Positions 12,000-32,484 of a DNA stretch of 64,000 nucleotides are shown piece after piece. The first letter of the stretch is position 1; every line of letters begins with the position of its first letter. This DNA comes from an uncultured Candidatus Rokubacteria bacterium (GTDB lineage Bacteria > Methylomirabilota > Methylomirabilia > Rokubacteriales > CSP1-6), in NCBI GenBank assembly GCA_963721815.1, contig CAVRLO010000024.1, positions 806,475-870,474 of the forward strand, written 5' to 3'. The translations under genes were made by a program, and so were the position numbers. Below the pieces are notes generated by a model that was given only the letters and a program-made list of their open reading frames with translations, made no database searches and was not told the DNA's origin.

Positions 12000-12169
12000 G
12001 TCGGTGATACCCTGCCGGGAGATCCAGCACGTGCACCACTCGCGCTAGATCGAAGCGACAACGTTACACCGGCGTCGCCGGTCGACCGGCCACCAACAGG
12101 ACACGAGAAAAGGGCACGGTGCAGGTACCGCCCGGGTCGGGGGCCGATCGGGACCGAAGGCCAGCCGCG

Positions 12170-12823
12170 ATGGAGTCCAAGCTCGTCGTCGTCATCGGGG
12201 GCGGGCTGTCCGGGCTGGCCGCCAGTTACGACCTGGCGCGAGCCGGTCACCATGTCGTCCTGCTCGAGGCGCTGCGAACTTCGGCGGCCTGGCCCGCTCC
12301 TTTCGCCTCGAGGGCCACCCGATCGAGCGCTTCTACCACTTCATCTGCCGTTCCGATCGCGATCTCCTGACTTTCGTCGACGAGCTCGGCCTCGGCGGGA
12401 AGCTCCATCGAGCAGACCAGCCTGAACCAGAACCTCCAGCGGGCCGGCCTCAACGTGGTCTATGGCCCTTCACCTGTCGACCACCGAGCCGCGCTACCGC
12501 GCCGCCGACCAGGACCTGTTCGCCGAGTACACCGCCATGCTGAAGCTCATGAATCCGGACTTCTCGGAGAGCTGGGTCAAGGAGTATCGCGTCTTTCGCA
12601 CGCCACATGCCCAGCCGGTCTTCACCACCAACTTCGTCGACCTCATGCCCGCGCACCGGACTCCGATCCGGGGTCTCTTCGTCACGGACCCACGCAGTTC
12701 TACCCGGAAGACCGCACGATCAGCCGGGCGATCCGCGAGGGCCGGACAGTGGCGGCCATGATCATGGCCGATTCGACGCCTCCCACTGGCGACGCTTTCC
12801 TGAGCCCAGGCGCGGCCTCGTGA
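12170..12823 (+). pseudogene. remnant of an FAD/NAD(P)-binding amine-oxidase/phytoene-desaturase-like oxidoreductase with an internal deletion
   Basis: The N-terminus MESKLVVVIGGGLSGLAASYDLARAGHHVVLLEA is a dinucleotide-binding fold. A shifted frame continues GGLARSFRLEGHPIERFYHFICRSDRDLLTFVDELGLGGKL. It then jumps directly to a C-terminal part: ALHLSTTEPRYRAADQDLFAEYTAMLKLMNPDFSESWVKEYRVFRTPHAQPVFTTNFVDLMPAHRTPIRGLFVTD / FYPEDRTISRAIREGRTVAAMIMA. About 215 aa remain, against the 430-450 expected. Confidence 0.55.
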
Positions 12824-13738
12824 CCCTGGTGGCGGCGACCTGCGTCGTGTGTGGGGGCGGCACCGTTGACCCCGTATACCACGGCAGCATCTCCCCGGCC
12901 GAGCCGCGCGACCCGGCGATCTACTTCTCGTCGTCCCGGCGGGTGGCCGGCTATCTCCCGATCGTGCGGTGCGCCCGATGCGGGCTCATGATGACGAGCC
13001 CTCGGGACGACGACGCGACCCTCGGCCGCATCTATGCGGACCTGGCGGATCGCACCTACGAGCAGGAAGACGAAGCTCGAAGCCGAAACGCGGGCGACCG
13101 CCTCGCGCTGGTGGCGAGCTACCGGCGGCCCCGGGGAACCTGCTCGATGTGGGCTGCGCAACCGGGCTCTTCGTATGCGCCGCCCAGAACGAAGGATGGG
13201 AGGCCACGGGCATCGACGCCTCGGCCTTGGCGGTGGCGCGGGGTGCGCAGCGGTGCCCCCAGGCCCGCTTCCGTGCGGGCCTGCTCGCGGAGATCGACTT
13301 CCCGGTCGGGAGCTTCGCGTGGTCACGCTGTCGGATGTCCTGGAGCACGTGCCGAGGCCGGTCGAGATTCTGCAAAAAATCCGGAGCTGGCTCGCCGTCG
13401 ACGGCTGGCTCTTCCTGAGCCTGCCGAACGCCGACAGCCGCATGGCCCGGCTGATGGGCAAGCGCTGGGTCCTGCTCCTGCGCGAGCACCTGTGGTACTT
13501 CTCGCCGGTCACGATCACCGCCCTGCTCTCGCGGACCGGCTTCACGCTCGCCGACGTGCGTCCGAAGCTCGACCGATTCTCCGTCGCGAACATCATGGAC
13601 CGTCTCGGCCAGTATCCGGGAGCGGCAGGGATGCTGGCCGGGCGCCTCTCGGGGGTCGGGGTCCTTCGACGTCTCATCGTACGCTTCCCCATCGGGGAGA
13701 TGTACGTGGTAGCTCGAGCGCCCGAAAGCCGATCGTAG
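12820..13738 (+). CDS. class I SAM-dependent methyltransferase with an N-terminal Cys-rich (zinc-ribbon-like) segment, two frame breaks
   Basis: A GTG at 12820 overlaps the preceding stop (GTGA). The protein reads CVVCGG...VRCARCGLMMTSP / LLDVGCATGLFVCAAQNEGWEATGIDAS (SAM motif I) / VVTLSDVLEHVPRPVEILQKIRSWLAVDGWLFLSLPN...MYVVARAP*. The shifts lie near 13125 and 13320. Confidence 0.7.
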
Positions 13739-17776: not shown

Positions 17777-20138
17777 ATGGCCAATCCGGTGACCGTCGAG
17801 AAATTCGGAGTCGGGCAGTCCGTGCGTCGCATCGAAGACCCACGCTTGCTCCAGGGGTTCGGGCGCTACTCGGACGACGTGAACCTGCCCCAGCAGGCCT
17901 ACGCCGTGGTGGTCCGCTCTCCCCACGCGCACGCGGCCATCCGCTCGATCGACTCCTCCGCGGCCCGCAACGCGAGCGGCGTGCTCGCCGTGCTCACCGG
18001 CGCCGACCTGGCGTCCGACCGGCTCGGCGACTTGCCGACGGACAAGAGCCGCAAGCGGCGCGACGGGTCGGCGGCGTTCGCGACGCCTCGGCCGGCGCTG
18101 GTCCGGGATCGCGTCCGCCACGTGGGCGACCCGGTGGCGTTCGTCGTCGCCCAGACTATGGAGCAGGCGGTCGATGCGGCCGAGCGGGTCGCGATCGACT
18201 ACGAGCCGCTGCCGGCCGTCGCCGCGACGGCCGACGCGATCCGCCCGGGCGCGCCGGCGGTGTGGGCGGAGGTGCCGGACAACACCGCGTTCGTGTGGGA
18301 AGCGGGTAAGAAAGACGAGACGGCGCGCGCCATCGCCGGTGCCGCGCACGTCACCAAGCTGGATTTCGTCGTGACGCGCGTGGCCGCCGCGCCGATGGAG
18401 CCGCGCGGCGCGGTTGGCGAGTGGGATCGGCGCACCGGCCGTTACACCCTTCACACGGGCATCCAGGCGCCGCACGGCCTTCGTACCCTGCTCGCGGATC
18501 AGGTGTTCAAGGTGCCGCACAGCCATCTGCGGGTCGTCACCGGCGAAGTCGGCGGCAGCTTCGGCATGAAGAGCGGCGTCTATCCCGAGGTCGTGCTGGT
18601 GCTGTGGGCGGCCAAGCGACTGGGGCGGCCGGTCAAGTGGACCTCGGATCGCCGTGAAGGCTTCGTCACCGACGAGCACGGGCGCGACAACGTCTCCACG
18701 GCCGAGCTGGCGCTCGACGCCGACGGAAAGTTCCTGGCCTTGCGCGTGGCCATCAACCTGAACGTCGGCGCCTATCTCACGCCGCGCAGCGCCGGGCCGG
18801 GCACCAACAACGTCGGCGGCATCGCCGGGATCTACACGACGCCCGCGATCCACGTGCAGACGACCGGTGTGTTCTCGAATACGACGCCGACGGGGCCCTA
18901 TCGCGGCGCCGGCCGCCCCGAGGCGACGTACGCGATCGAGCGCGTCATCGACGTGGCGGCCATGGAGCTCAAGATCGACCCGATCGAGCTACGCCGTCGC
19001 AATCTGATCCCGGCCTCCGCGATGCCGTTCAAGACGGGGCTCGTCTTCACCTACGACTGCGGCGAGTTCGGGCGCGGGATGGACATGGCGTTGAGTCTGG
19101 CCGACCGCGCAGGCTTCGAGAAGCGGCGCGCCGAGGCCCGGCAGCGGGGCAAGCTGCGCGGCCTGGGCATCGCCAATCCGATCGAGGTCGCCGGCGGGCC
19201 GTACACCGCGATGAATCCGGATACCGCCGAGCTCAGGGTCAACGCCGACGGCTCGGTGTCTCTGTTCACCGGCTCGACGTCGATGGGGCAGGGCAACGAA
19301 ACGGCCTTCGCCCAGATCGTCAGCGAGAAGCTCGGCGTGCCGCCCGAGCGCATCCAGGTGTTCTGGGGCGACAGCGACTTGCTCGGCGCGGGCCGTGGCA
19401 ACGGCGGCTCGGGCGCGCTCACGGTGGGCGGCTCGGCCGTGACGCGGGCTACCGAGAAGATCATCGAGCGGGGACGCAAGATCGCAGCGCGGTTGCTCGA
19501 GGCCGCTCCGGAAGACGTGGTCCACCAGGATGGAAAGTTCACGGTGAAGGGCACGGACAAGGGCGTGACGTTCGCCAACGTCGCCCGCGCCGCGTACGTG
19601 CCGCGCCAGCTTCCCCAGGGGATGGAGCCTGGCTTCAGCGAAGAGGCCTCGTTCACGCCGTCGGCGGTGACGTTCCCCAACGGATCGCAGATCTGCGAGG
19701 TCGAGATCGATCAGGAGACCGGTGCGGTGCAAGGTCGTGCGCCACACCGTCGTCGATGACGTCGGGCGCATGGTGAACCCGATGCTCGTGAAGGGACAGA
19801 TCCACGGCGGCGTGGTCCAGGGGCTCGGCCAAGGGCTCTACGAAGAGCTCACGTACGAGCCGACGACCGGTCAGCTGCTCGCCGGCTCCTTCATGGACTA
19901 CGCGATGCCGCGCGCCGACGACATGCCCGCCTTCGACGTCGATTCCCACGAGGTGCCGACCGAGGTCAATCCGCTCGGCGCCAAGGGCGTCGGTGAAGCC
20001 GGAACGGTGGGTGCGCTGCCGGCGCTCCTGAACGCGGTCAACGATGCGCTGGCACCGCTCGGCGTCCGGCACCTCGACATGCCGGTGACGCCCGAGCGCG
20101 TCTGGCGCGCGATCCAGGACGGGAAAGCTCGCCGCTGA
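17777..20138 (+). CDS. xanthine dehydrogenase/CO dehydrogenase-family molybdopterin-binding large subunit (CoxL-like, AYRGAGR type), one frame break
   Basis: ORF 17777..19759 reads GQSVRRIEDPRLLQGFGRYSDD...GGSFGMK...TPTGPYRGAGRPEATYAIERVID...EVEIDQETGAV. It continues in ORF 19722..20138 with VVRHTVVDDVGRMVNPMLVKGQIHGGVVQGLGQGLYEE...NPLGAKGVGEAG. The shift lies near 19715-19730. Confidence 0.85.
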
Positions 20139-21650: not shown

Positions 21651-21670
21651 GCACGCGAGGGATCGCGTGC
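21651..21670 (+). terminator. GC-rich hairpin directly after the amidohydrolase stop (no U-tract)
   Basis: gcacgcga-ggga-tcgcgtgc forms a perfect 8-bp stem with a 4-nt loop. It begins 6 nt after the stop at 21643-21645. Confidence 0.35.
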
Positions 21671-21772
21671 CGGCGGAGTGCTCAGTCCAGGAAGCGCTCA
21701 CGAATCTTCCGGCGCATCAGTTGCGGGGTGACGGCAGCGACGTCCTGGGGCGTCCGGCAGCACGGGATTCCA

Positions 21773-22030
21773 ATGCCTCAAGATGGTACCCAGGCACGAC
21801 GACGCCGAACGCTCGTTACGCTTGAGGACCGTGAGGCTTACCGAATCGAACTCGTACGGCGTCGGCTGCCGAGGAGAGGAGGCATGGCACTTCTTTACTG
21901 TTGCCCGTGGTGCCGAAAGCGCCGTCGCCACCTCTACCGCCTGACGTGTCCGGCAACAAACTGTCCAAGCGTCACGGCCTATGGTGCCAGCAATGTCCCC
22001 ATGATCGCCGGACACGAGACGGCCAGCGCC
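21773..22030 (+). pseudogene. degenerate zinc-ribbon hypothetical gene (frame-broken)
   Basis: The sequence reads MPQDGTQARRRRTLVTLEDREAYRIELVRRRLPRRGGMALLYCCPWCRKRRRHLYRL, then continues in another frame with ...SGNKLSKRHGLWCQQC.... The CxxC...CxxC arrangement resembles small zinc-ribbon proteins often found near mobile DNA. The end point is uncertain. Confidence 0.3.
21775..21878 (+). repeat. about 104-nt segment paralogous to 31681-31785 (inverted orientation)
   Basis: By hand alignment, gcctcaagatgg...acgcttgaggac...ccgaatcga.ctcgt.cg.cgtc.gctgccgaggagag is shared with the reverse complement of 31681-31785. Identity by eye is about 84% over the last 49 nt and lower in the first part. The encoded peptide VTLEDrEayRIeLVRRrLPRR compares with VTLEDsEvsRIdLVRRpLPRR. 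Confidence 0.6.
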
Positions 22031-22205
22031 GGCGCGGCGGTCTTCTGCGGACGCGAGATCACCGACGTGCGTCCGGCTGGTCGAGACGGTCGTCCGGGTT
22101 GCGCGGGCGACCTCGAAGGTGGGGGGCTACGGGTTTCCGCTGCCGAAGACCGTCCCGGGCTTCTCGCCGGGCGACACGGAGCCACGGTCGGCGTCGGGGC
22201 GCCGC

Positions 22206-23924
22206 TCAGGGGAAACGTCGCTCCAGATGCTCGAGGACGAGCGCGCTGAGCTGGCGCCGATCACGCGTTTGCGAGAACGCGTGATCGGCGCCCTTCACGA
22301 TCTCTACCCGGAATCCGGGCCGGCGGCGCAGCGCGGTCCCGCGTCTCCCCAGCTGGGCCTCCAGCTCCTCGATGCCGTCGTCGCCCTCGCCGAACACGAT
22401 CAGCAGTTCCGCTCCTCGCGCCAGCGGCGCCTCGAGCGCCACGCTCAGGGGGAGCGCGCTCGGGTCGGCCGGCAGCTGACGGAATGCGCTCAGCCAGGCC
22501 ACGCGGGCCGCCCGGCGGAAGAGCCCTGTCGCCACTCCCACGATGTCGATCTCGCCGCGGGCGATACGCTGCCAGGTGTCGCGCCGGCGCAGGGCCTGGC
22601 GGCTATAGCGCATGGTGCCTGCGAGCGCACGCACTTCCCGATCCCGCACTCCCGCCCGACGAACCGGGATCCTCGGGTTGATCAGGACCGCCCCGATCAC
22701 CCGCGCGTCGCACCACGAGGCCTGCACGGCGACGTGCGCGCCCGAGCACAGCCCCATGAGCACGAAGCGCGAGGCCACACCTCTGGACTCGAGGAAGTCC
22801 AGCGCCGCCCGCACGTCCTGCTGGCGAGCGTTCCAGTCGATCTGTTCCCAGGTGCGGTCCCCGAATTTCGCGGAATCACCCACGTCAATGAAGTCGAAGC
22901 GCAGCGCGGGGAATCCCCGGCCCGCCACGGCCCGCGCCAGCGGCACGTACATGCGGTGCGGCCCGACGCGATGGTCGAACGCAGCATTGAGAAAGAGGAC
23001 GGCCGGTCCGGTTGACCTCTCCCGCGCCGGGCGGCTGAGGATCCCGAACAGCGCGCCGTCGGGTCCGAATCGACAGATCTCTTCGTCCACGTCGAGACCG
23101 CCGAGTGTCGTGGTCGCTCGGCACGGGCGGGTGGGTGACGGCGCGACGTCGGTCGCGTGAGTGGTCGACATCCACCGCACGATCTCCTCGATCACGGCAG
23201 TGGGGACGACGGGCCTGATCCCATCGTGGCTCATCGAACCGTAGATGTCGCCGGCGGTCGAGTCGACACGGACGCCGGAGGCCTTCCATCGTCGCCCCAG
23301 CGTCCACATCGACGACTGCTGGTTTCGGTGAAGCAGCAGGATGCGAGGACAGGGGGCCGGAAGCGTGGACAGATCCAGGGTGAGCAGCGATTGCACGGTG
23401 GAGGCAGTGAAGAGAAAGCCGCCCGCCTCTTCGGCTCCCGGCGGCAGGTGATCGCGGTTCGGGTTCAGCGCGTGATATGCGCGCAGCGCCCGGACGTACT
23501 GGCGGCCTTCCAGCGTCGGCGCCCACAGGGCCAGGCTGGCGATGTCACGGCGGGCCGCGGCGGCGTACGCGGCCAGCGTGGCACCGATGCTCAGGCCGAA
23601 GAGGCCGACCTCGCTCACGCGGGATTGCGTGCGCAGCTCCTCGACCGCCGTGTCGATGCTCACCAGCCAGGCCTGCAGCCGGTCGGGATCCTCGTCGGTA
23701 CCGAGCGAGTCTCCGGTGCCATCGTAGTCGAACCGCAAGACGGCAAAGCCTGCTCGACTCAGCGCGTCGGCGAGCGCGCGATACGTACCGTGGGTGACGA
23801 GGCCCTCCCAGCCGAGCGGATTGCACAGTACCACGCCGCAGGAGCGCGGGGCCCCCGCGGGAGCGTGGTAGTGGCCGAACAACCGACGGTCGACCGGACC
23901 GAACGCCAGCGAAACCATCGACAT
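22206..23924 (-). CDS. fusion of two alpha/beta-hydrolase domains resembling exosortase-A-system-associated hydrolase 2 (N-terminal) and hydrolase 1 (C-terminal)
   Basis: Intact from M67 of ORF 22206..24122. The N-terminal half reads LFGHYHAPAG...VVLCNPLGWEG...LRFDYDGTGDSLG...VGLFGLSIGATLAAYAA...LALWAP. The C-terminal half reads LFGILSRPA...AVLFLNAAFDHRVGPHRMYVPLARAVAGRGFPALRFDFIDVGDS...FVLMGLCSGAHVAVQ...VLINPRI. Family names are recalled from TIGRFAMs-type annotation and were not searched. Confidence 0.65.
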   Translation of the reverse strand: MSMVSLAFGPVDRRLFGHYHAPAGAPRSCGVVLCNPLGWEGLVTHGTYRALADALSRAGFAVLRFDYDGTGDSLGTDEDPDRLQAWLVSIDTAVEELRTQSRVSEVGLFGLSIGATLAAYAAAARRDIASLALWAPTLEGRQYVRALRAYHALNPNRDHLPPGAEEAGGFLFTASTVQSLLTLDLSTLPAPCPRILLLHRNQQSSMWTLGRRWKASGVRVDSTAGDIYGSMSHDGIRPVVPTAVIEEIVRWMSTTHATDVAPSPTRPCRATTTLGGLDVDEEICRFGPDGALFGILSRPARERSTGPAVLFLNAAFDHRVGPHRMYVPLARAVAGRGFPALRFDFIDVGDSAKFGDRTWEQIDWNARQQDVRAALDFLESRGVASRFVLMGLCSGAHVAVQASWCDARVIGAVLINPRIPVRRAGVRDREVRALAGTMRYSRQALRRRDTWQRIARGEIDIVGVATGLFRRAARVAWLSAFRQLPADPSALPLSVALEAPLARGAELLIVFGEGDDGIEELEAQLGRRGTALRRRPGFRVEIVKGADHAFSQTRDRRQLSALVLEHLERRFP

Positions 23925-23953
23925 CCCGATCGGCTGGTCGGCCCTCGCAGCGC

Positions 23954-26473
23954 TCACGTTGCCGTCTCGCCCTCGTGCACTAACCCCGTCAGGTCGAGCT
24001 TGACCGGTGTCGTCGAGTTGAGCGCACGGACCTGGCCTCCAAGCCGGTCCGGCCGACCGCGGGCGGCGAGCGGCACCGTGACCTCCATTCCGGGGGCCAG
24101 GTGAAAATAGTTGTCCGCGCACTCGAACCCGGGTATGTCCAGGACGACCGACTGGGCGAAGCGGCGGGCGCGCAGTGTGACACGGGCGCTGGTGGCGGAT
24201 TCTCGCTGGGCGACGGCCTGCAGGCCGACGTCGGGGTCGATCTCGTTGGGCAAGCCGAGCGGAAAGTGGAAGGCGCTGGCCAGGCGGTGCCCGCCGGGGC
24301 GCTCGACGAGCTCGACGACGCTCACCTCATGGCTCGGGGGCCCGAAGCGATAGGCGTACGTCGTGTCCGCGAAGCGGCCGAGCATGCCCTCGACCGAATG
24401 GGCCACGGCCTCGTGTCCCGGGAGGAACAACGGGATCGTGGCGGACAACACCGGGACGTCCCCATCTCGCCAGGCGGTAAACCGGATCTCCGCGTCGAGC
24501 GCGCACTCGCTGTCGTTGACGGCGTGGACGACAAGGCCGTTGAGACCTTCGTCGAGGAGGAACACGGCCACGGGGGCGAGCGCGCGTTTCAGGTAATAGT
24601 AGGCGGCCTTGGGTCTACCGTCCGAATCGATGACACCCCAGCCGGCCCCCGGCCAGAGATCGCGGAAGAACCACACCAGGCCGCCCCGACACGACGAGCC
24701 GACGCGGCGCCATTCGGCAAACGTGCTCGCCATCAGCTCCCCCGTGGCGACGCGGCCGAGTTCCAGGTAGCGAGCCGGATCGCGATGCTGCAGCGTCAAC
24801 GGGTCGACCCGGAACAGCTGCTGGACATAGTGGTCGCGGACGTCCTCGAAATCCCAGCTCGCGCCAGCGTCGCGGGGCACCCGTTCCTTCCAGATGGGTC
24901 GGTGGATCGGCGCTGGAACGGGACCGAGGATCTTGTGGATCATCGTGTCGTCGGGGACGTTGGCGAAGGCGAGGCACTCGGACGCGAACCGCACGTGTGA
25001 GCGACGCGCGTCGTCGGGGCCGCGTCGGTACGCGCCGACGCCGTAGTAGTGACAGATGCCGGTGTCGACGTGGAACGGCAAGACACCACCGCTCGGCGTG
25101 GAGGCCACGTAAGGAATCTCGGGCACCCGAGCCCGACACAGGGCGGGGAGCACGTCCTCGAAGAGCGTGCCGCGCCCACGGCTGGCCGGCAGGCCGAGCA
25201 TCGCCGCCTGTTGCTCGACCTCGCTGTTGCCGCACAGCACCGCGAGAGACGGCCGAGCCGCGAGCCGGTCGAGCAGCTGATTTGCCTCCCGACAGATGTC
25301 CGCGGTGAAGGCGGGGTCGTCGCCGGGGTAGTCCATGCTGGCGAACATGAAGTCTTGCCAGACGAGGATTCCCAGCTCGTCGCAGAGATCGTAGAAGTCG
25401 TCCGCCTCGTAGAACATCGTGCCGCTCACGCGGAGCAGGTTCATTCCGGCCGCGCGGGCCGCCTCCAGCGCTCGTCGGTACGCTTCCCGGCTTCCCGTGA
25501 GCGTCGCCACGTCCGTGGTCGTCCAGCATGCCCCTCGCGCGAAGATGGGCACGTCATTGACCCGCAGCTCGAAGCCGCCGTGGTCGGTCGAGGTGGCCAG
25601 GGTCCGGAACCCGACGGCGCCGGCGCCCAGCACCACCTCCGCGCCGGCCACCTGCGCGGTCACCCGGGTCGGATACAGGCGCGGAAGTCCGTGGGTGTGT
25701 GGCCACCAGCTCTCGACCGAATCGAGCCGCACCGCGCCGCCGAGCTCGAGGCGCCCGCCCGGGACCGGACGGGTCTGGAGCCGCGCCGTCCGGTCCCCGA
25801 CCATGACCATCGCCGTGTCGATGGCCTGCCCCTCGAAGGGAGCAAGACGAGCGAGGACGCTGACCACGCCGGCGCCGCCGGCAACGCGCGCGTCGACGTG
25901 CAGCGCCTCGACCGTGCCGCCCACACGGTCATCGATCCACACCGGCCGCCAGGGTCCGACCGCGACGGCCGGTGGTGACCAGCCTGGCGTGCGGCCCAGC
26001 AGGGAGGTGCGAATCCAGCGCAGCCCCTGATGCCGGACCAGGCGCGTCTTCCAGCGCGGGCGCGAGCGCTTCTCCTGCAGTACCGCGTCGAGGGATGCGA
26101 ATCGGATCAGCAGCTCGTTGTCCCGCTCGAGCTGGCGGCTCACGTCGACCTCGTGCCCCACGAACATGCTGGTCGAGCGCAGCAGATGATGGCCGTTGAG
26201 CCACACGTCGGCCACGGTGGCCAGGCCGGCGAATCCCAGAAAGACGTGGTGACCGGGCGCCGGCGCCGGACCTGAAAACCTGCAGCGATACCACCAGTCC
26301 TCGGCGTCGAAATCCCGCCGACTCGACAGATCCCACTCGCCGGCCGCTCGCAGCGCGGAGGCCACGGTGCCAGGGACGATCGCGGGCCGCCACGACGGTG
26401 CGGGAGGAGCGGCCGTCGAACCGGGAACGGCCGGCGCGCATTCCCAGTGTGCGGTGAGCAGTCGCCGGCTCAC
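23954..26473 (-). CDS. glycoside hydrolase family 2-like protein (beta-mannosidase/exo-glucosaminidase-like), no signal peptide
   Basis: Intact. A GTG start at 26473 overlaps the stop of the upstream gene (GTGA). The sequence includes EDWWYRCRF, VADVWLNGHHL, ESWWPHTHGLPRLY, NLLRVSGTMFYEADDFYDLCDELGILVWQDF, LCGNSEVE (candidate acid/base) and RFASECLAFANVP (candidate nucleophile). Confidence 0.7.
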   Translation of the reverse strand: MSRRLLTAHWECAPAVPGSTAAPPAPSWRPAIVPGTVASALRAAGEWDLSSRRDFDAEDWWYRCRFSGPAPAPGHHVFLGFAGLATVADVWLNGHHLLRSTSMFVGHEVDVSRQLERDNELLIRFASLDAVLQEKRSRPRWKTRLVRHQGLRWIRTSLLGRTPGWSPPAVAVGPWRPVWIDDRVGGTVEALHVDARVAGGAGVVSVLARLAPFEGQAIDTAMVMVGDRTARLQTRPVPGGRLELGGAVRLDSVESWWPHTHGLPRLYPTRVTAQVAGAEVVLGAGAVGFRTLATSTDHGGFELRVNDVPIFARGACWTTTDVATLTGSREAYRRALEAARAAGMNLLRVSGTMFYEADDFYDLCDELGILVWQDFMFASMDYPGDDPAFTADICREANQLLDRLAARPSLAVLCGNSEVEQQAAMLGLPASRGRGTLFEDVLPALCRARVPEIPYVASTPSGGVLPFHVDTGICHYYGVGAYRRGPDDARRSHVRFASECLAFANVPDDTMIHKILGPVPAPIHRPIWKERVPRDAGASWDFEDVRDHYVQQLFRVDPLTLQHRDPARYLELGRVATGELMASTFAEWRRVGSSCRGGLVWFFRDLWPGAGWGVIDSDGRPKAAYYYLKRALAPVAVFLLDEGLNGLVVHAVNDSECALDAEIRFTAWRDGDVPVLSATIPLFLPGHEAVAHSVEGMLGRFADTTYAYRFGPPSHEVSVVELVERPGGHRLASAFHFPLGLPNEIDPDVGLQAVAQRESATSARVTLRARRFAQSVVLDIPGFECADNYFHLAPGMEVTVPLAARGRPDRLGGQVRALNSTTPVKLDLTGLVHEGETAT

Positions 26474-27447
26474 GAACCATACCGGGCGGTCAGCTGTGTG
26501 AGTCCTCGTTCCCAGTTCGCTTGCATGGTCGACAACATCGGCCCGAAGTCCACCGCCCTGTTCGTCGTGACCGCGCGGGCGGTCTTGAGCAGCATGGCCT
26601 TGGCGGTGACCGCGATCGCCTCGAACTCGGCCGCGGCCGCGCCGAGGCCGCTCTCGCCATGACGCTCGAGCCATCGAAGGTGCTGGGCGGCCAGCTCGAA
26701 GGCCCCTCCGAGCTGGCGCAACATAGCGAACGCATACCCATGGTAGGCGCCCGGCTCGAGCCGCAGACACGCTACGTCCTCGTGAACACGCTCGGCGAAT
26801 TTCGCGATGGGATTCGCTCGGGGCACGCGCGAGAGATGACCGGCCAGGAGCGCGAGCGAGGTCTTGACCAGCATGGGATCGGGTAGTCGTCGCCGGCTGC
26901 CCAGCTTGACGATCTCGACATAGGGCGGCAAGCCACTAGCGGACGGGTCGAGGGGCGGGAGGATACCGGTGTACTCCTCGCCGCCGAGCTCGAAGTAGCC
27001 GGCATTGTGGAAGTAGCCGAGCCGACGGGCATCGGGATCGATCGCCACGATGCCAATCGTGGTCTTGGCGTGCCGGGTTCGATAGTCGGTGCCGGCGGTG
27101 TCGGGGAGATGGAAGCTGTCCACCTCCACCAGCACCACCCGACCGTGCTGGATCTGCTCTATCGTGTGCGCCTGCAGGGAGCGCCAGATGGTCAACTCCT
27201 GCACGTCCACGCCATAGAGCTGGTACAGGTCGGCGTGCGAGGGCTTGAAGAACGTCCATTGATCACCCTCGAAATCGACGGCCACCGTGAAACCCAGGCA
27301 CGCCATAGGCTCGAGCTCGAGGGTGTGGAGCAGCTCGATCCACAAATCTGCGTAGCAGTTGGTCTCGGTCCAGGTTCGCTCGCCCTGGTGCAGCCCGTGG
27401 GGCGTCCAGGGGCGAGAATCGAGCGGGGCGACGGCGTGGTACTTCAC
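26470..27447 (-). CDS. DUF1839-like protein of unknown function
   Basis: Intact 325-aa ORF: MKYHAVAPLDSRPWTPHGLHQGERTWTETNCYADLWIELLHTLELEP.... I recall this type of protein being annotated DUF1839 next to amino acid:[carrier protein] ligase genes. An ATGA overlap links it to the ligase gene. Confidence 0.5.
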   Translation of the reverse strand: MKYHAVAPLDSRPWTPHGLHQGERTWTETNCYADLWIELLHTLELEPMACLGFTVAVDFEGDQWTFFKPSHADLYQLYGVDVQELTIWRSLQAHTIEQIQHGRVVLVEVDSFHLPDTAGTDYRTRHAKTTIGIVAIDPDARRLGYFHNAGYFELGGEEYTGILPPLDPSASGLPPYVEIVKLGSRRRLPDPMLVKTSLALLAGHLSRVPRANPIAKFAERVHEDVACLRLEPGAYHGYAFAMLRQLGGAFELAAQHLRWLERHGESGLGAAAAEFEAIAVTAKAMLLKTARAVTTNRAVDFGPMLSTMQANWERGLTQLTARYGS

Positions 27448-28361
27448 GTCCAGAGCCGGTGCCGGACCGGCTCCGGCCAGCGGTCGGGGTCGAAACCGTG
27501 AACCTGGAACAGGGCCAGAACGATGCGCTCCAGGCCGAATCCGAGACAGGCCGTGTGGGCGACGCCGCCCTCGGCGGTGACGATTCCGAACTTCGAGGCG
27601 AAGTGATCCTCATGGTAGTTGAGCGACATCACGGCGGTCGGCCGCTCGGACGACGTGATGGGCACGACGGCCTCGAGCTTGAGCTTCTGGTCTCGTTGAC
27701 TGCCGGCGAGCCATTTCCCCCGACGGCCGAAGAACGGATCGGAGGCGGGGACGACCTCGACCGCCAGTCCCAGCGCGCGCATGATCGAGGCCCCCCGCTC
27801 GATCCAGCGTGCCCGCCAGTCGAGGACTACCTCAGGCGAAGCGAGCCGGACGTGTTCGCGCATCCGGAACGCTTGCAGCCGCGCCGGGTCCGGGGAGGGC
27901 TCGCGGCGAAAGCAATATGAGGTCAGGTCGATCAGGCGTCCGGCGAACGGCAGGCTGCCCCGACAGGTCGGGTATGCGGGATAGCAGGCGGCGGACGACA
28001 GCGCGACGTCAGTCATCTTCAAGAACGTGCTCCAGTCCCCTCCTGCCGCCACCTGCGCCTGCAGCTCGGCGTGATCCGCGTCGTCTCCCTCGAAGCTGAA
28101 CACCGTTCCGGCCAGGTGTGGAAAGGAGCCCAGGAACCCGCTCTGCTCCACCAGCCGACGCGGGATGACGGGCGGAAAGTGCATGGCCTCGGCACCATCG
28201 TCGGCGACGGTGCGTGAGATGTGCTGGTTCACGCCGGCCAGCACCATCTCGAAGGTGTTGTTGCGCCCGACGACACCCGGGACCCCGAGTGGAATGATCA
28301 GCCCCCGGCCTACGAGCTCGTCGTGGAAGGGGGGTTCCTCGTCCCTGGACCTGACGATCAT
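27444..28361 (-). CDS. amino acid--[acyl-carrier-protein] ligase (class II aminoacyl-tRNA-synthetase catalytic-core homolog without a tRNA-binding domain)
   Basis: The C-terminal 305 aa of ORF 27444..28946 start at ATG 28361, which forms an ATGA overlap with the upstream gene. Class II motif 2 is LTSYCFRREPSPDPARLQAFRMREHV and motif 3 is HTACLGFGLERIVLALF. The segment ALSSAACYPAYP resembles the zinc-site region of methanogen-type SerRS. The protein is too short to be a real aaRS. Confidence 0.75.
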   Translation of the reverse strand: MIVRSRDEEPPFHDELVGRGLIIPLGVPGVVGRNNTFEMVLAGVNQHISRTVADDGAEAMHFPPVIPRRLVEQSGFLGSFPHLAGTVFSFEGDDADHAELQAQVAAGGDWSTFLKMTDVALSSAACYPAYPTCRGSLPFAGRLIDLTSYCFRREPSPDPARLQAFRMREHVRLASPEVVLDWRARWIERGASIMRALGLAVEVVPASDPFFGRRGKWLAGSQRDQKLKLEAVVPITSSERPTAVMSLNYHEDHFASKFGIVTAEGGVAHTACLGFGLERIVLALFQVHGFDPDRWPEPVRHRLWT

Positions 28362-29557
28362 GCGTCGGACTTGGACACGAGCAGCAAGGCGGCATTCGTG
28401 GCAAGGATCCGATCGTTGCCGATCATCAGAGGCGCGGAGTGCGCGTCGCGGAGCTGACGGCCGAGGCCGAACTCCGAATCGTTCGCATAGCCGGCCATGC
28501 CGCAGACGAGCAGAGCCTGCTGGACGATCTCGACGAGCTGGCGCGACGCCGTGAGCTTGAGCCCGTTCATCCGCACTGCGAAGCCGAGCCCTGGACCTGC
28601 CTGCTCTCCGTCGGTGGCGTCGAGCAGGTGCCGGTACTCGACGATCACGCCTTGCACCCCCGCGCGCATCGCCTGGAAGGTGGCGCACAGATCGGCGAGA
28701 CGCGCGGCGGTCGCGGGTACCGCTCCCGGCCGCTGGCGGGCCTGGTCGCGCACGAAGCTCCGCGCCCGCTCGACGGCGTCGCTCGCGAGCCCCAGCCACA
28801 CGTTGGCCCACAGGATGTGGGAGAACGGGACCATGGTGGCGCTGGCGATGTCCGCGAACGGTACCGTCAGGATCTGATCTAGCCGGCCGTGCCCGGTTAC
28901 ACGGAAGGCGGGACTGCACGTCCCGCGCATGCCCAGCGTTTGCCACGTACCCCGACGCTCGAGCGAGTAGTGGGGCCGTCGGAGCAGCAGGAGGACCTGA
29001 TCATTGCTGGCCGCGGCCGGCGACCGGCGGGCCGTGACCAGGACATCATCGGCCTCCTCGCCGTACGAGATGGCGGCGGCCACCTTCTCGAGCCGAAATC
29101 CTTCCGCGTCGGCCTGGACGGCGCACTGGCTGGTGCGCAGGTCGCCACCGACGCCGACTTCCGACGTGGCGGACGCGATCAGGAGCTGGCGCTCGGTGAC
29201 CTCGGCGAGGTACGCGCGGATCCAGGACGAACTCATGCCGTGGCGGACCAGGCAGGCCACCTCGATGTAGTGCATCGCCAGGACCATCGCGGTGCTGGCG
29301 CAGTACCGGCCCAGGAGCCGGCAGAGCGCGGCAAGCTCCGCGATGCCACAGCCCAGACCGCCGAGGTCGGTCGGTATCCCGGCGCCGAGCGCCTTCGCCT
29401 TCTTGAGCTCGGCCAGTGCCTCGTGGGGGAACCGCGCGTCGCGGTCGATCTCCGGGGCCAGTGGCCCCGCGACCTCGACGCCGATGCGCCGGACCTGCGC
29501 CTCGAGTCGATCACGACCTCGAGAAGCCTGCGGCGCCGGCGATGGCATCGGGGGCAA
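28358..29557 (-). CDS. acyl-CoA dehydrogenase family protein
   Basis: Intact 399-aa ORF with a TTG start at 29557 or an ATG at 29548. The sequence includes IPTDLGGLGCGIAELAALCRLLGRYCASTAMVLAMH, LIASATSEVGVGGDLRTS, WQTLGMRGTCS and CGMAGYANDSEFGLGRQLRDAHSAPLMIGNDRI, the typical ACAD architecture. Confidence 0.8.
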   Translation of the reverse strand: MPPMPSPAPQASRGRDRLEAQVRRIGVEVAGPLAPEIDRDARFPHEALAELKKAKALGAGIPTDLGGLGCGIAELAALCRLLGRYCASTAMVLAMHYIEVACLVRHGMSSSWIRAYLAEVTERQLLIASATSEVGVGGDLRTSQCAVQADAEGFRLEKVAAAISYGEEADDVLVTARRSPAAASNDQVLLLLRRPHYSLERRGTWQTLGMRGTCSPAFRVTGHGRLDQILTVPFADIASATMVPFSHILWANVWLGLASDAVERARSFVRDQARQRPGAVPATAARLADLCATFQAMRAGVQGVIVEYRHLLDATDGEQAGPGLGFAVRMNGLKLTASRQLVEIVQQALLVCGMAGYANDSEFGLGRQLRDAHSAPLMIGNDRILATNAALLLVSKSDA

Positions 29558-29558
29558 A

Positions 29559-29801
29559 TCAGCGGTGGAGCTGCAACTGTTCGATGGCTGCCCGGATCGC
29601 GTTGACGGATGCGAACGTCGCCCGGTTTAGCATCGAGTCGGGGAACTCCAGATCGAACGCCTCTTCGAGTCCCAGCATGACATTGACGCCAGCGTGCGAC
29701 GTCATCCCGGCCTGGTAGAGATCGGTATCGTCCTCCAGCGCCTCCGGAGGGACGCGCAGCCGACCGTGCTCGACCAGGACGACGCGAATCCGGTCATTCA
29801 A
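29559..29801 (-). CDS. acyl/peptidyl carrier protein (phosphopantetheine attachment site present)
   Basis: The 80-aa ORF has a TTG start that overlaps the PPTase stop (TTGAATGA). The motif DLYQAGMTSHAGVNVMLGLEEAFDLEFPD contains the conserved Ser for 4'-phosphopantetheine. Confidence 0.8.
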   Translation of the reverse strand: MNDRIRVVLVEHGRLRVPPEALEDDTDLYQAGMTSHAGVNVMLGLEEAFDLEFPDSMLNRATFASVNAIRAAIEQLQLHR

Positions 29802-30108
29802 CGCGGCGGCCTTTCCCGCGCTCCTCGGCCACGACCACCGCGGTCGCGTAGGTGCCGTCGTGACTCAGGCTGACTTCGAGCTCGCCCAGGCCCTGGGCGT
29901 CAGCCAGGGCCGCCGCCGCACCGCTGAGTCTCAGCTCGCACCATCCGCGAAACGTGCCGCGAGGCTTACCGGGCGCGACCTTCGCCGTCTCCCGCAGACA
30001 GTCAGCGCGCTCATCCTGGGTGAAGATCCGATCGAGGGAACGGGATCGGAAGCGGGGCAGCGACGTCGAGACCTCTTCTATGCACACGAGGTCGATTCCC
30101 ACTCTCAT
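29794..30108 (-). CDS. short AcpS-type 4'-phosphopantetheinyl transferase (holo-ACP synthase-like)
   Basis: The 104-aa ORF reads MRVGIDLVCIEEV...LDRIFTQDERADC...EVSLSHDGTYATAVVVAE, which matches the GIDxVxI / F...E / SLSH...A.A blocks of AcpS. The central region is shorter than in canonical AcpS. Confidence 0.55.
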   Translation of the reverse strand: MRVGIDLVCIEEVSTSLPRFRSRSLDRIFTQDERADCLRETAKVAPGKPRGTFRGWCELRLSGAAAALADAQGLGELEVSLSHDGTYATAVVVAEERGKGRRVE

Positions 30109-30390
30109 GAGCGCTTGTCCTGGGCCCTCCTGCGTTCACCATCCGCGGGAAGGACTGGTCCATCGGCTGGGCGGCGCCTAGCGTCGATGCCCCCCAGGGT
30201 CGAACCAAGGCGCTGCGGCCCAGTGGGGCGTAAGAGACTAGCACACCCTTGTGCTCATGACAATGCTGCGGGTGACGATGGCGCCGCTCTTGCCAATCGG
30301 CTCGAGGTCCATGGCCATCCCTCTAGCGCGGCCGCAATCGAACGGTGGATGCTGCTCGCGCCGCCCTCTCCAACGGGGGGCTTCAGGGAT

Positions 30391-30580
30391 TCAGGCGACG
30401 GCCACCGTGGCGCGCGGGCGCGCGCCCGTCCCCGGCGGATCGGGCAGCGCGAACGCCTCGAAGGGCCGGTTCACCAGCCGCCCGTTGTCGGCCGTCAGGC
30501 GCTCGCGCACGGTTCCCGCCACCCTGACGGTCTGCTCCACGTCGAAGGCGACCCTCTGGCTGCTGCGCCAGGTCGAGCAT
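30391..30580 (-). CDS. small hypothetical protein (about 50-63 aa), probable frame break near its 5' end
   Basis: The strongly GC3-biased frame gives ...VAFDVEQTVRVAGTVRERLTADNGRLVNRPFEAFALPDPPGTGARPRATVAVA*. The ATG at 30580 (MLDLAQQPEG) is in the neighbouring frame, and an in-frame GTG alternative lies at 30540. Before the IS insertion this ATG lay 3 nt after the TAG of the upstream gene. Confidence 0.3.
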
Positions 30581-30582
30581 GG

Positions 30583-30588
30583 CCTAGA
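30583..30588. repeat. target-site duplication CCTAGA (left copy)
   Basis: This copy is identical to 31617-31622 and directly abuts the IS inverted repeat. It fits the NCTAGN target known for IS481. Confidence 0.85.
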
Positions 30589-31528
30589 TGTGAACGAGCA
30601 TGAGGTTGTTCCCCCGCGGGAACCGACTCATGGGTGGCTGCCGGTTGAGACTCGTATGCGGTCGAGCGCAATTGTAGTGCTCCAGCCAGCCCGGGAGGAC
30701 CCGGCCACGATCCGCCGAGGTGTAGTAGGGCCGCCGGTACGCCCACTCGCGCAGCGCGGTCTGGATGAAGCGCTCCGCTTTGCCGTTCGTGCGGGGCGTG
30801 TAGGGGCGGGTCCGGCGATGGATCACGCGCAGGGCTCGACAGGCGGCCCGAAAGCTCCGGGAGCGATAGGCCGAGCCGTTGTCGGTCAGGATCCGGCGCA
30901 CGCGCACGCCGTGGGCGCGAAACCAGCGCAGCGCGCCCCGCAGAAAGCGACGGGCGGTCAGTTGGCCTTCGTCGGGGAGCAACTCCACGTAGGCGACGCG
31001 CGAGTGATCATCGACGGCGACGTGCAAGTATTCCCAGCCGGCGCCGCTGAACCGGTGGAAGCGCTGCCCGGTCACGCGGTGCCCCAGGCCGCGAATCCGG
31101 CCCAGCTTCTTGGAATCGAGGTGGAGCAGATCGCCGACCGCCGCGTGCTCGTAGCGCTGGGCGACCAGGGGGGCCGTGAGCCGCCCGCGCCGCGAGAGCC
31201 CACACCGCCGCAGCACGCGGGCGACGGTGGCCGCACTCACCTCGAGCGCGACCGCGATCTGCCCGCAGGTCCACTGCTGGCGCCGCAACACCTTGGCGGC
31301 GAGCTGCAGGCGCGCGGCCGTGAGCCGGGGACTGGTGTGGGGCCGGCTCGACCGGTCGGCCAAGCCGGCCCAGCCGTCGGCCTGATAGCGAGCGCGCCAC
31401 TTCCGGGCAGTATGGGCCGATACGGCGAACCCGCGCGCCAGGCGCTTGAGGGGTTCGCCGGCTTCCAGCCGCATCACCAGTTCTTGTCGACGGCGCAGCG
31501 TGAGTCGGGCATTCTTGTGGACGTTCAT
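30584..31528 (-). CDS. IS481-family DDE transposase (rve integrase core)
   Basis: From M84 of ORF 30584..31777 it reads MNVHKNARLTLRRRQELVMRLEAGEPLKRLARGFAVSAHTARKWRARYQ (HTH)...LLHLDSKKLG...ILTDNGSAYRS...YTPRTNGKAERFIQTALREW (D, D, E). The TAG stop at 30584-30586 lies in the flanking CTAG target duplication, outside the inverted repeat. Confidence 0.9.
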   Translation of the reverse strand: MNVHKNARLTLRRRQELVMRLEAGEPLKRLARGFAVSAHTARKWRARYQADGWAGLADRSSRPHTSPRLTAARLQLAAKVLRRQQWTCGQIAVALEVSAATVARVLRRCGLSRRGRLTAPLVAQRYEHAAVGDLLHLDSKKLGRIRGLGHRVTGQRFHRFSGAGWEYLHVAVDDHSRVAYVELLPDEGQLTARRFLRGALRWFRAHGVRVRRILTDNGSAYRSRSFRAACRALRVIHRRTRPYTPRTNGKAERFIQTALREWAYRRPYYTSADRGRVLPGWLEHYNCARPHTSLNRQPPMSRFPRGNNLMLVHI

Positions 31529-31616
31529 CCAGGCCTCCTGTCCCGGGTGAGTAATGACTTGGCAGCCACTACTTTCCCCAGGTCGGCCTGGGTGAACAAC
31601 CTCTTGCTTCGTCACA
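30589..31616 (-). mobile_element. IS481-family insertion sequence, 1028 bp, apparently intact
   Basis: The imperfect terminal inverted repeats are TGTGAACGAGCATGAGGTTGTTCCCCC (30589-30615) and TGTGACGAAGCAAGAGGTTGTTCACCC (reverse complement of 31590-31616), matching at 22 of 27 positions. They are flanked by direct CCTAGA copies. A single DDE transposase ORF fills the element. Confidence 0.9.
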
Positions 31617-31622
31617 CCTAGA
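31617..31622. repeat. target-site duplication CCTAGA (right copy)
   Basis: This copy is identical to 30583-30588 and directly abuts the other inverted repeat. Confidence 0.85.
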
Positions 31623-31952
31623 TCAGGTCGGACCCGAACCGGCGCGGCGCCGCCGCGTACTTCGCCACCACGCCCGGCAACTCTCCTCGGCAGCGGACGG
31701 CGGACGAGGTCGATTCGGGAAACCTCGCTGTCCTCAAGCGTGACCGGCACTGCGGCGCCGTCGTCGCTGAGCGCCATCTTGAGGCGTACTCGAGTTCGCC
31801 ATCATCGTCGGTCCAGAACACGAAGTATGGGCGTCGGCGGGGATCGCCGAAGACCACCGTGCGGGGAAGGTGGGAAGCCGAGGCCCGCTCTCTACGTTGA
31901 CGCGGACACCACAGAAATCCCCGTCGGAAACTCGCACCCCTGTTTTCTCCAT
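31618..31952 (-). pseudogene. hypothetical gene readable only across three frames
   Basis: The pieces are MEKTGVRVSDGDFCGVRVNVESGPRLPTFP / RTVVFGDPRRRPYFVFWTDDDGELEYAS / KMALSDDGAAVPVTLEDSEVSRIDLVRRPLPRR / ELPGVVAKYAAAPRRFGSDLI*. The TAG stop is the CTAG used by the IS as its target. I recognise no family. Confidence 0.3.
31681..31785 (-). repeat. about 105-nt segment paralogous to 21775-21878 (inverted orientation)
   Basis: See the feature at 21775-21878. The alignment was done by hand. Confidence 0.6.
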
Positions 31953-32194
31953 TCATTCCACGTGGTCGGGCTTTCGATAGAATTGCCACTGGGGCGCCGC
32001 GTTATCGAAGAAAGCGTCAAGGTCCTTCCGCCGGAACCTCCACCCTCCACCAATGACACGGCCCTCGAGCTCGCCGCGGCGCACATACTCGCGGACTGTC
32101 CGTGGTGAAGACGAAGCACATCGGCGGCCTCTTTGAGCGTCAGGAGACGCTCCAGATCGGGGACAGGGGAAGCCCCGGTCGTTTGCGATGTCAT
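31953..32194 (-). CDS. excisionase/MerR-superfamily helix-turn-helix DNA-binding protein (HTH_17-like), one frame break
   Basis: The protein reads MTSQTTGASPVPDLERLLTLKEAADVLR (ORF 31892..32194), then SPRTVREYVRRGELEGRVIGGGWRFRRKDLDAFFDN...* (ORF 31953..32204). The shift lies near 32105. This is the typical LT.KEAA..L.VS.RTV...V..G.L....G..WR....DL..F pattern. Confidence 0.6.
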
Positions 32195-32484
32195 AAATCT
32201 TCATGGGGACGTGGTGGTCCCCATCGGGTGTGATCTGGCTGGAACGCGAGTCCCGAGGTCGTGCGTTCCACGATGTTCCAGCGACCTACTGCGTTGTCGG
32301 CGATCTTGCTCGCCAAGTAGAGACCGGCAGCGGGCCCGCAGTCTGTCGGGAGCTGGCGACGCAACTTTCTCTGCGGTCATGGCTCGGCTTCGCTCGCAAC
32401 CGTGGACCGCGCTTTCTTCGCGGCCCGTTCGCGCCGTTTCCGGACGCGGTAGAGCACCGTAGGCCGGAACGATACGGCGCTACG

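Follow-up and report, generated by a model that had tools for sequence, protein, structure and literature searches.

The 64-kb window analysed here (64,000 nt from an uncultured Candidatus Rokubacteria bacterium, assembly GCA_963721815.1, contig CAVRLO010000024.1, positions 806,475 to 870,474) carries on its minus strand a gene, hereafter the double hydrolase, whose product joins two alpha/beta-hydrolase domains in one polypeptide. This protein belongs to a distinct, widespread and uncurated clade of fused proteins tied to amino acid:[carrier protein] ligases and, to judge from residue conservation, only its second, C-terminal half keeps a conserved active site, which is centred on a cysteine. 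With confidence slightly better than even, we favour that the gene product is the off-loading enzyme of an aminoacyl-carrier-protein pathway, in which the Cys domain would be catalytic and the N-terminal domain would act as a non-catalytic partner.

The two motifs that the initial annotation had placed in a single polypeptide, FGLSIGATLA in the N-terminal half and GLCSGAHVA in the C-terminal half, were both found in one open frame of 572 aa plus stop, where Ser112 of the former is encoded by AGC and Cys393 of the latter by TGC (coordinates of these and all other features are collected in the Table). The ATG lies 30 nt past the stop of the upstream gene, and the GC content at third codon positions (GC3) is 0.81, in line with the coding pattern of the window. 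The fusion is real and not a sequencing error. Protein searches retrieved a full-length twin of 97% identity (P0002) from another sample, as well as more than 300 protein clusters of ~550-630 aa that are 34-44% identical to the query, with alignments spanning 95-100% of its length, and a scan of one genome per species counted at least 596 species genomes that encode full-length fused relatives. Their hosts include Myxococcota, Burkholderiales, Gemmatimonadota, Acidobacteriota, Acidimicrobiia, Alphaproteobacteria, Verrucomicrobiota and Planctomycetota, among others, and RefSeq names these proteins merely 'alpha/beta fold hydrolase'. An artefact of assembly or sequencing in which the stop and start separating two genes were lost, a possibility raised at the outset, is refuted by these full-length homologues (97% identity in another sample, 30-44% in hundreds of genomes), and the confidently modelled linker between the domains speaks against it as well, so that its probability is practically nil. 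Open reading frames (ORFs) of ~1000 aa in Ideonella were discarded, since they contain no extra domain and represent read-through upstream of the real start.

Both halves of the double hydrolase are assigned to the alpha/beta-hydrolase fold superfamily by Pfam, which recognises two generic domains (Hydrolase_4 at 72.3 bits and Abhydrolase_6 at 70.2 bits, both above gathering), and by structure prediction. The AlphaFold2 (AF2) model, derived from 62 homologues (mean predicted local distance difference test score, pLDDT, 86.7; predicted template modelling score, pTM, 0.86), contains two alpha/beta domains separated by a short linker, with a helical cap in the C domain at about residues 420-502 of the AF2 secondary structure. 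A Foldseek search of the PDB with this model returned only generic single-domain S33 lipases/esterases, at probability 1.00, and provided neither a two-domain template nor a functional hint. Among the NCBIfam models, residues 15-147 matched best the exosortase-A-associated hydrolase 2 family, TIGR03101 (hydr2_PEP; 110.4 bits against a curated cut-off of 202.75), over model positions 12-143 of 266 only, and residues 291-568 matched best the hydrolase 1 family, TIGR03100 (hydr1_PEP; 141.2 bits against 168.45), over model positions 13-273 of 274; genuine members reach 226-363 bits on the former model and 364-387 bits on the latter. The families named by the initial annotation are therefore the best ones for each half and come in the order that it gave, with hydrolase 2 first, but neither score reaches its cut-off. 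For this reason, and because it falls in a separate clade, the double hydrolase is, on profile and tree evidence, not a member of either the TIGR03100 or the TIGR03101 equivalog.

Residue conservation was counted on an alignment of 212 fused proteins whose key positions were read one by one. In the C domain it points to a Cys-Asp-His triad: Cys393 is kept in 209 of the 212 relatives and His548 in 206, and an acidic residue (Asp or Glu) stands at the position of Asp515 in 206. The triad recurs in standalone hydrolase-1-like proteins and also in genuine hydr1_PEP proteins, in which it is accompanied by a GLCDAA elbow and by SGxD and (A/E)NH motifs. Two elements of the first description of the gene are thereby borne out, namely the GLCDAA-type elbow stated for hydrolase 1 and the replacement of the nucleophile Ser by Cys in the C-terminal half of the window protein.

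The N-terminal domain tells a different story with regard to the active site. At the nucleophile elbow, which reads G110-L-S112-I-G114 in the double hydrolase, the position of Ser112 is Arg in 189 of the 212 fused proteins, His in 8, Gly in 7, Lys in 5 and Ser in only 3, the latter being the window protein, its 97% twin and the unrelated P0049; the closest relatives of the window protein (42-44% identity) have His. Arg is also found at the elbow of standalone hydrolase-2-like proteins and in all five genuine hydr2_PEP proteins aligned (each above 300 bits), as GLRLG in four of them and AVRHG in one. The 'classical' GxSxG elbow first described for this half is therefore an exception within its own family, and Ser112 is best interpreted as a lineage-specific change from the family's Arg. 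Residue 233 is His in the window protein and its twin only, and Arg, Gln or a hydrophobic residue elsewhere, with Arg in P0049; a single base change separates the Arg codon CGC from the codon of Ser112 (AGC) and likewise from that of His233 (CAC). The catalytic-acid position is occupied by Asn201/Gln202 in the window protein, and across the aligned fused family no conserved Asp or His partner was found in the N domain. Because the Arg elbow is common to fused, standalone and genuine hydr2_PEP proteins, the hydrolase-2 lineage as a whole is, by the residues it conserves, not a serine hydrolase but a predicted pseudo-hydrolase, and the N domain of the double hydrolase is probably non-catalytic. 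Cys34, invariant in the first 62 sequences and throughout most of the clade, was considered as an alternative nucleophile of this domain and rejected: it aligns with the residue preceding the oxyanion motif, where Cys also occurs in unrelated Ser hydrolases of solved structure, 9pir for example, its position is Val/Ile in genuine hydr2_PEP proteins and the Cys is lost in the Gly-elbow subgroup. Its role is probably structural. A regained Ser112-His233 dyad is equally unsupported beyond this lineage, P0049 pairing its elbow Ser with Arg233.

The genomic context relates the double hydrolase to a carrier protein. The gene is the last of seven contiguous minus-strand genes, which encode, in this order, an AcpS-type phosphopantetheinyl transferase (PPTase), a carrier protein, an acyl-CoA-dehydrogenase (ACAD)-like flavoenzyme, an amino acid:[carrier protein] ligase, a DUF1839 protein, a protein resembling glycoside hydrolases of family 2 (GH2-like) and the double hydrolase itself. 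A published classification assigns DUF1839 a papain-like fold and a C-(T/S)-H triad (PMC10318531). In a survey of 83 loci holding a fused relative, genes of this cassette were found beside the fused hydrolase in ~54, spread over many phyla; the carrier protein was present in 41 loci, the ACAD-like enzyme in 43, the ligase in 41, DUF1839 in 34 and the GH2-like protein in 43, while an ACPS gene occupies the position of the PPTase gene in 11 of these loci and in L008 (loci are cited here by L number). The gene order of the window recurs in a metagenomic contig and in Corallococcus. Starting instead from the ligase, an inspection of 20 kb per locus revealed the double hydrolase in 9 of 16 Hyphomicrobiales loci, and the cassette also resides on plasmids with an existing annotation, complete on p2 of Azospirillum argentinense Az39 (ABAZ39_RS37580) and likewise present in Rhizobium sp. 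NLR16a. The minimal form of the cassette, as in Sphingomonas aquatilis DSM 15581, comprises the carrier protein, the ACAD-like enzyme, the ligase and the double hydrolase, without DUF1839 and the GH2-like protein; nothing else is conserved around these four genes, which makes the double hydrolase the only candidate there for unloading the carrier protein. The two hydrolase-like domains are further fused, in a 1103-aa protein of a Rhizobium lineage, to an N-terminal Polysacc_synt_3 (Wzx-like flippase) domain, and the gene of this triple fusion is flanked by two GT4 glycosyltransferase genes inside an amino acid:[carrier protein] ligase cassette. In 11 fused loci that lack the cassette, an AMP-binding enzyme is encoded in its stead.

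Other neighbours of the fused gene were noted in the same survey. In four Paraburkholderia loci (L081, L085, L089 and L094) a fused hydrolase without the amino acid:[carrier protein] cassette lies near an 881-aa MprF-like gene, of the same gene family in all four and with LPG_synthase_TM and LPG_synthase_C domains in L089, the one copy scanned with Pfam; L081 also has an AMP-binding enzyme nearby. Such a neighbourhood is suggestive of a link with lipid aminoacylation. A Ser/Thr protein kinase gene adjoins the cassette or the fused hydrolase on three unrelated contigs (L007, 2269-4056; L008, 12841-15189; L009, 8343-9734) and was not seen in the window. In L067 the fused gene and an ORF of 1061 aa are followed by a second pair (11823-13405), this one split into hydrolase-2-like and hydrolase-1-like genes of 254 and 292 aa.

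Split pairs, always with the hydrolase-2-like gene preceding the hydrolase-1-like gene, occur directly after a gene for an adenylation-carrier didomain protein, or after carrier-protein and PPTase genes, in polysaccharide loci with genes for Wzy, flippase, glycosyltransferases and sugar aminotransferase. Genuine hydr2_PEP proteins scored above cut-off in 40 of 201 Burkholderiales genomes, and the 10 exosortase-A-type (XrtA-type) loci that were fetched all hold hydrolase 2 followed by hydrolase 1, as separate genes in 8 and fused in 2 (L121 and L122). Two separate genes, taken by the initial annotation as the normal state, are therefore the usual arrangement of the exosortase-A clade only and not a general one. 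In L122 a gene for an acyl carrier protein (ACP) is directly upstream of the fused pair, and ligase_PEP_1 (816 bits) and the pyridoxal phosphate (PLP)-dependent decarboxylase dCO2ase_PEP1 (632 bits) are encoded nearby. In a tree of the C domain the window protein groups in the fused clade of the amino acid:[carrier protein] type (Shimodaira-Hasegawa-like approximate likelihood ratio, SH-aLRT, 96), the XrtA-type proteins form another clade (SH-aLRT 99) and standalone proteins lie in between. Since the XrtA-type fusions nest inside the XrtA clade (SH-aLRT 99), apart from that of the window, hydrolases 2 and 1 have, by this tree, been fused at least twice independently. Such recurrent fusion, together with the constant gene order of the split pairs, argues that the pair acts as a physical unit, so that the idea of an obligate pair put forward for the window protein is favoured as far as physical pairing is concerned, but not in its version of a relay between two nucleophiles. 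One and the same pattern is observed for three loading systems: the hydrolase 2/hydrolase 1 unit is combined with an adenylating enzyme and a carrier protein and, optionally, with a tailoring enzyme. In XrtA-type loci a conserved ORF of 415-416 aa directly follows hydrolase 1 (L119, 6689-7936; L121, 10364-11614; L122, 6223-7473; L128, 6833-8083); it had no NCBIfam match in the two copies scanned (L119 and L122) and it is not the PLP decarboxylase, which is encoded on the other side of the locus, but it may be a further unrecognised member of the XrtA-type module.

In the pathway that we favour, the ligase would load a small amino acid onto the holo-carrier protein, where the ACAD-like enzyme may modify it. 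Cys393 would then attack the phosphopantetheine thioester to form an (amino)acyl-S-enzyme, from which the acyl group would pass to an acceptor, most likely the hydroxyl or amine of a sugar or glycan at the cytoplasmic face, and otherwise to water. The N domain, whose elbow pocket usually holds Arg and here Ser, would probably dock the carrier protein or the acceptor. DUF1839 is missing from the minimal cassette and from the XrtA-type loci, which argues that the double hydrolase needs no other enzyme for unloading the carrier protein, and we lean to transfer onto sugars over hydrolysis because of the polysaccharide loci, the flippase fusion, the presence of a GH2-like sugar-binding protein and the precedent of CmaE, SyrC, CouN7 and LgnA. 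SyrC and CmaE use a Cys nucleophile. The four proteins have the alpha/beta fold and form a covalent enzyme intermediate with an (amino)acyl group that they draw from a carrier-protein thioester, LgnA by means of a Ser; CouN7 then hands the group to a free-standing substrate, whereas CmaE, SyrC and LgnA deliver it to another carrier domain (PMC8748450). Their likeness to the double hydrolase is one of fold class and by analogy, no sequence relation having been seen in our family scans, and, unlike it, they are single-domain proteins of nonribosomal peptide synthetase pathways.

Several observations weigh against this off-loading role. No biochemical data on relatives of hydrolase 1 or hydrolase 2 were found in the literature, where TIGR03100 has only been listed as a match in a Burkholderia exopolysaccharide cluster, and ~28 of the 83 fused loci have no cassette gene within 10 kb. 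Transfer and hydrolysis, furthermore, are not distinguishable from sequence. The cassette also includes DUF1839, a predicted amide-forming transferase, so that in its full version the double hydrolase could serve a secondary purpose, for instance proofreading or deprotection. The same prediction, made in a 2010 note, feeds an alternative that we regard as unlikely but deserving of attention, namely that the Cys domain is a plain thioesterase, hydrolysing the thioester to set free a small-molecule product or to clear mis-loaded carrier protein in the manner of type II editing, while DUF1839 carries out the transfer. The resemblance of the fold to esterases and lipases fits such an activity, and the minimal four-gene cassette could well yield a free acid, but Cys nucleophiles in the alpha/beta fold are typical of transfer chemistry, the pair turns up repeatedly in polysaccharide loci and, in one lineage, as a fusion with a flippase, and no other transferase is conserved in the XrtA-type and adenylation-carrier loci.

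It could also be argued that the enzyme is independent of the carrier protein and merely co-transcribed with it, acting as a dienelactone-hydrolase-like enzyme or as an esterase, for instance a deacylase, on a glycan or small molecule. Dienelactone hydrolases have a Cys-His-Asp triad on an alpha/beta fold, as predicted for the C domain here, whose residues 329-414 match Pfam DLH (PF01738) at 34.6 bits (gathering 21), although over model positions 33-126 of 217 only, and the loci without neighbouring cassette genes would fit this possibility. The linkage to an adenylating enzyme and a carrier protein across three loading systems, and the ACP gene immediately upstream of the fused pair in L122, point instead to a carrier-protein substrate rather than to lactones and make this proposal distinctly improbable. 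Slightly less probable still is that both domains are catalytic and relay an acyl group from the carrier protein via Ser112 to Cys393, or in the reverse direction. The perfect G-L-S-I-G elbow and His233, on the loop of the usual catalytic His, are what would be expected of such an enzyme, but an elbow Ser shared by three fused proteins, the Arg of genuine hydr2_PEP, the Asn201/Gln202 at the acid position and a His233 found in the window protein and its twin, with Arg in P0049, leave the family N domain without a conserved triad and the relay with Ser and Cys nucleophiles, as originally proposed, unsupported.

The double hydrolase is related to two known systems without being identical to either. 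With the exosortase-A hydrolases it shares its best-scoring families and their order, the Cys at the hydrolase-1 elbow, an Arg that is the norm in the hydrolase-2 part, the linkage to an adenylating enzyme and a carrier protein, and the occurrence of fusions, which the genuine family also has (L121 and L122). It differs from them in its sub-cut-off scores, its separate clade and its GLCSG elbow, as opposed to their GLCDAA; in its loader, a ligase resembling seryl-tRNA synthetase (SerRS) and not their AMP-forming ligase_PEP_1; in the lack of a PLP decarboxylase and exosortase A in the window; and, with respect to genuine hydr2_PEP, in the Ser that replaces Arg at the elbow of its N domain. Amino acid:[carrier protein] ligase systems, represented by Bradyrhizobium Bll0957/Bsr0959 and Agrobacterium Atu2573, are the second point of reference, since the ligase and the carrier protein of the window pass those curated models. 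Ligases of this kind were reportedly studied by Mocibob et al. in 2010 and 2013. Their ability to charge carrier proteins with Gly or Ala was shown in 2010, and a review of 2022 still called their role unknown. In 2010 Aravind et al. linked them to genes for an oxidoreductase, the conserved but functionally unassigned Atu2574 (now DUF1839), a glycosidase and surface-sugar functions, predicted Atu2574 to be an amide-forming enzyme and proposed the aminoacylation of a cell-surface sugar (PMC2922099). The association at the operon level is thus already known in part, but the double hydrolase is not mentioned in that account (PMC2922099). The pseudo-hydrolase nature predicted for hydrolase 2, the recurrent independent fusions and the position of the double hydrolase as the sole downstream enzyme of the minimal cassette appear not to have been described before.

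As to the host, the absence of exosortase and PEP-CTERM genes stated for this stretch in the initial annotation is confirmed over the whole 64-kb window, which also contains no exosortase A, ligase_PEP_1 or dCO2ase_PEP1. The genome does encode two exosortases, one on C13 (159 bits) and one on C23 (133 bits), both short of the XrtA cut-off of 208, and ~11 PEP-CTERM matches, but each of these either belongs to another contig or is separated from the window by more than 350 kb. The pair is linked here to a carrier protein outside the context of exosortase A, in agreement with the recruitment to a different context that had been suggested. No second strong hydrolase-1-like gene was found in this genome. 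A relative of the double hydrolase, of 34% identity, is present in 1 of 16 genomes of the same genus, and none was detected in 14 sampled genomes of other genera of the family and order. Because of this sparse distribution and of the IS481-family element flanking the operon, the cassette (region 21660-32484) looks like a horizontally acquired island. GC3 is 0.81-0.86 in the cassette genes, as compared with 0.88-0.94 in several neighbouring genes. Elsewhere in the window, a CoxL-like molybdopterin subunit is split into two overlapping plus-strand frames, 17777-19759 (660 aa) and 19722-20138 (138 aa), of which the former stops at position 219 of the MoCoBD_2 model and the latter resumes from position 218, a continuity which argues for a frameshift or sequencing error near 19730.

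Table. Features of the double hydrolase, of its operon and of related fusions in other loci; coordinates are those of the window unless a locus is named.
Feature	Coordinates	Strand	Remarks
Double hydrolase, coding sequence of the fused two-domain alpha/beta-hydrolase	22206..23924	-	
N-terminal hydrolase-2-like domain, residues 1-258	23151..23924	-	TIGR03101 best match; limits from a hidden Markov model built here
C-terminal hydrolase-1-like domain, residues 279-572	22209..23090	-	TIGR03100 best match; predicted Cys-Asp-His triad
Cys34, N domain	23823-23825	-	
Ser112, N domain	23589-23591	-	
His233, N domain	23226-23228	-	On loop of usual catalytic His
Cys393, C domain	22746-22748	-	
Asp515, C domain	22380-22382	-	
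His548, C domain	22281-22283	-	
GH2-like protein, ~839 aa	23954..26473	-	Pfam Glyco_hydro_2_N2 (4.7e-24), Ig_mannosidase; just upstream of the double hydrolase
DUF1839 protein, papain-like fold	26470..27447	-	PF08893, 371 bits
Amino acid:[carrier protein] ligase, SerRS-like, without tRNA-binding domain	27444..28361	-	NF005479, 406.5 bits (cut-off 357)
Acyl-CoA-dehydrogenase-like flavoenzyme	28358..29557	-	Pfam Acyl-CoA_dh_N, _M and _1; NCBIfam equivalogs weak
Dedicated carrier protein, 80 aa	29559..29801	-	NF005480, 102.6 bits (cut-off 72)
AcpS-type phosphopantetheinyl transferase, short, 104 aa	29794..30108	-	Sub-threshold holo-ACP synthase matches
IS481-family transposase ORF	30584..31777	-	Pfam rve, rve_3, LZ_Tnp_IS481; context only, not part of the system
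Exosortase-A-type fusion, genuine, 583 aa	L121 8616-10367	+	Both TIGRFAM models above 300 bits
Exosortase-A-type fusion, genuine, 599 aa	L122 7470-9269	-	Both TIGRFAM models above 300 bits
Flippase-hydrolase 2-hydrolase 1 triple fusion	L146 9363-12674		Rhizobium sp. NLR16a plasmid p3
Flippase-hydrolase 2-hydrolase 1 triple fusion	L137 15388-18687		

As the only candidate for unloading the carrier protein in the minimal cassette, the double hydrolase offers an experimental handle on the product of the amino acid:[carrier protein] pathway. The combination of an Arg-elbow hydrolase 2, a Cys hydrolase 1 and their repeated fusion also reframes the 'two hydrolases' of exosortase-A systems as a unit of a catalyst and a pseudo-enzyme. 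It is tempting to speculate, tentatively and with more doubt than for the window protein itself, that the hydrolase 2/hydrolase 1 module, fused or split, is a general, hitherto unrecognised device for moving carrier-protein-bound (amino)acyl groups onto sugars or glycans, with the Cys domain as catalyst and the Arg-elbow domain as its obligate docking partner; if true, this would explain both the hydrolase pair of exosortase-A exopolysaccharide loci and how the pathway of amino acid:[carrier protein] ligases, whose last step is missing, comes to its end.

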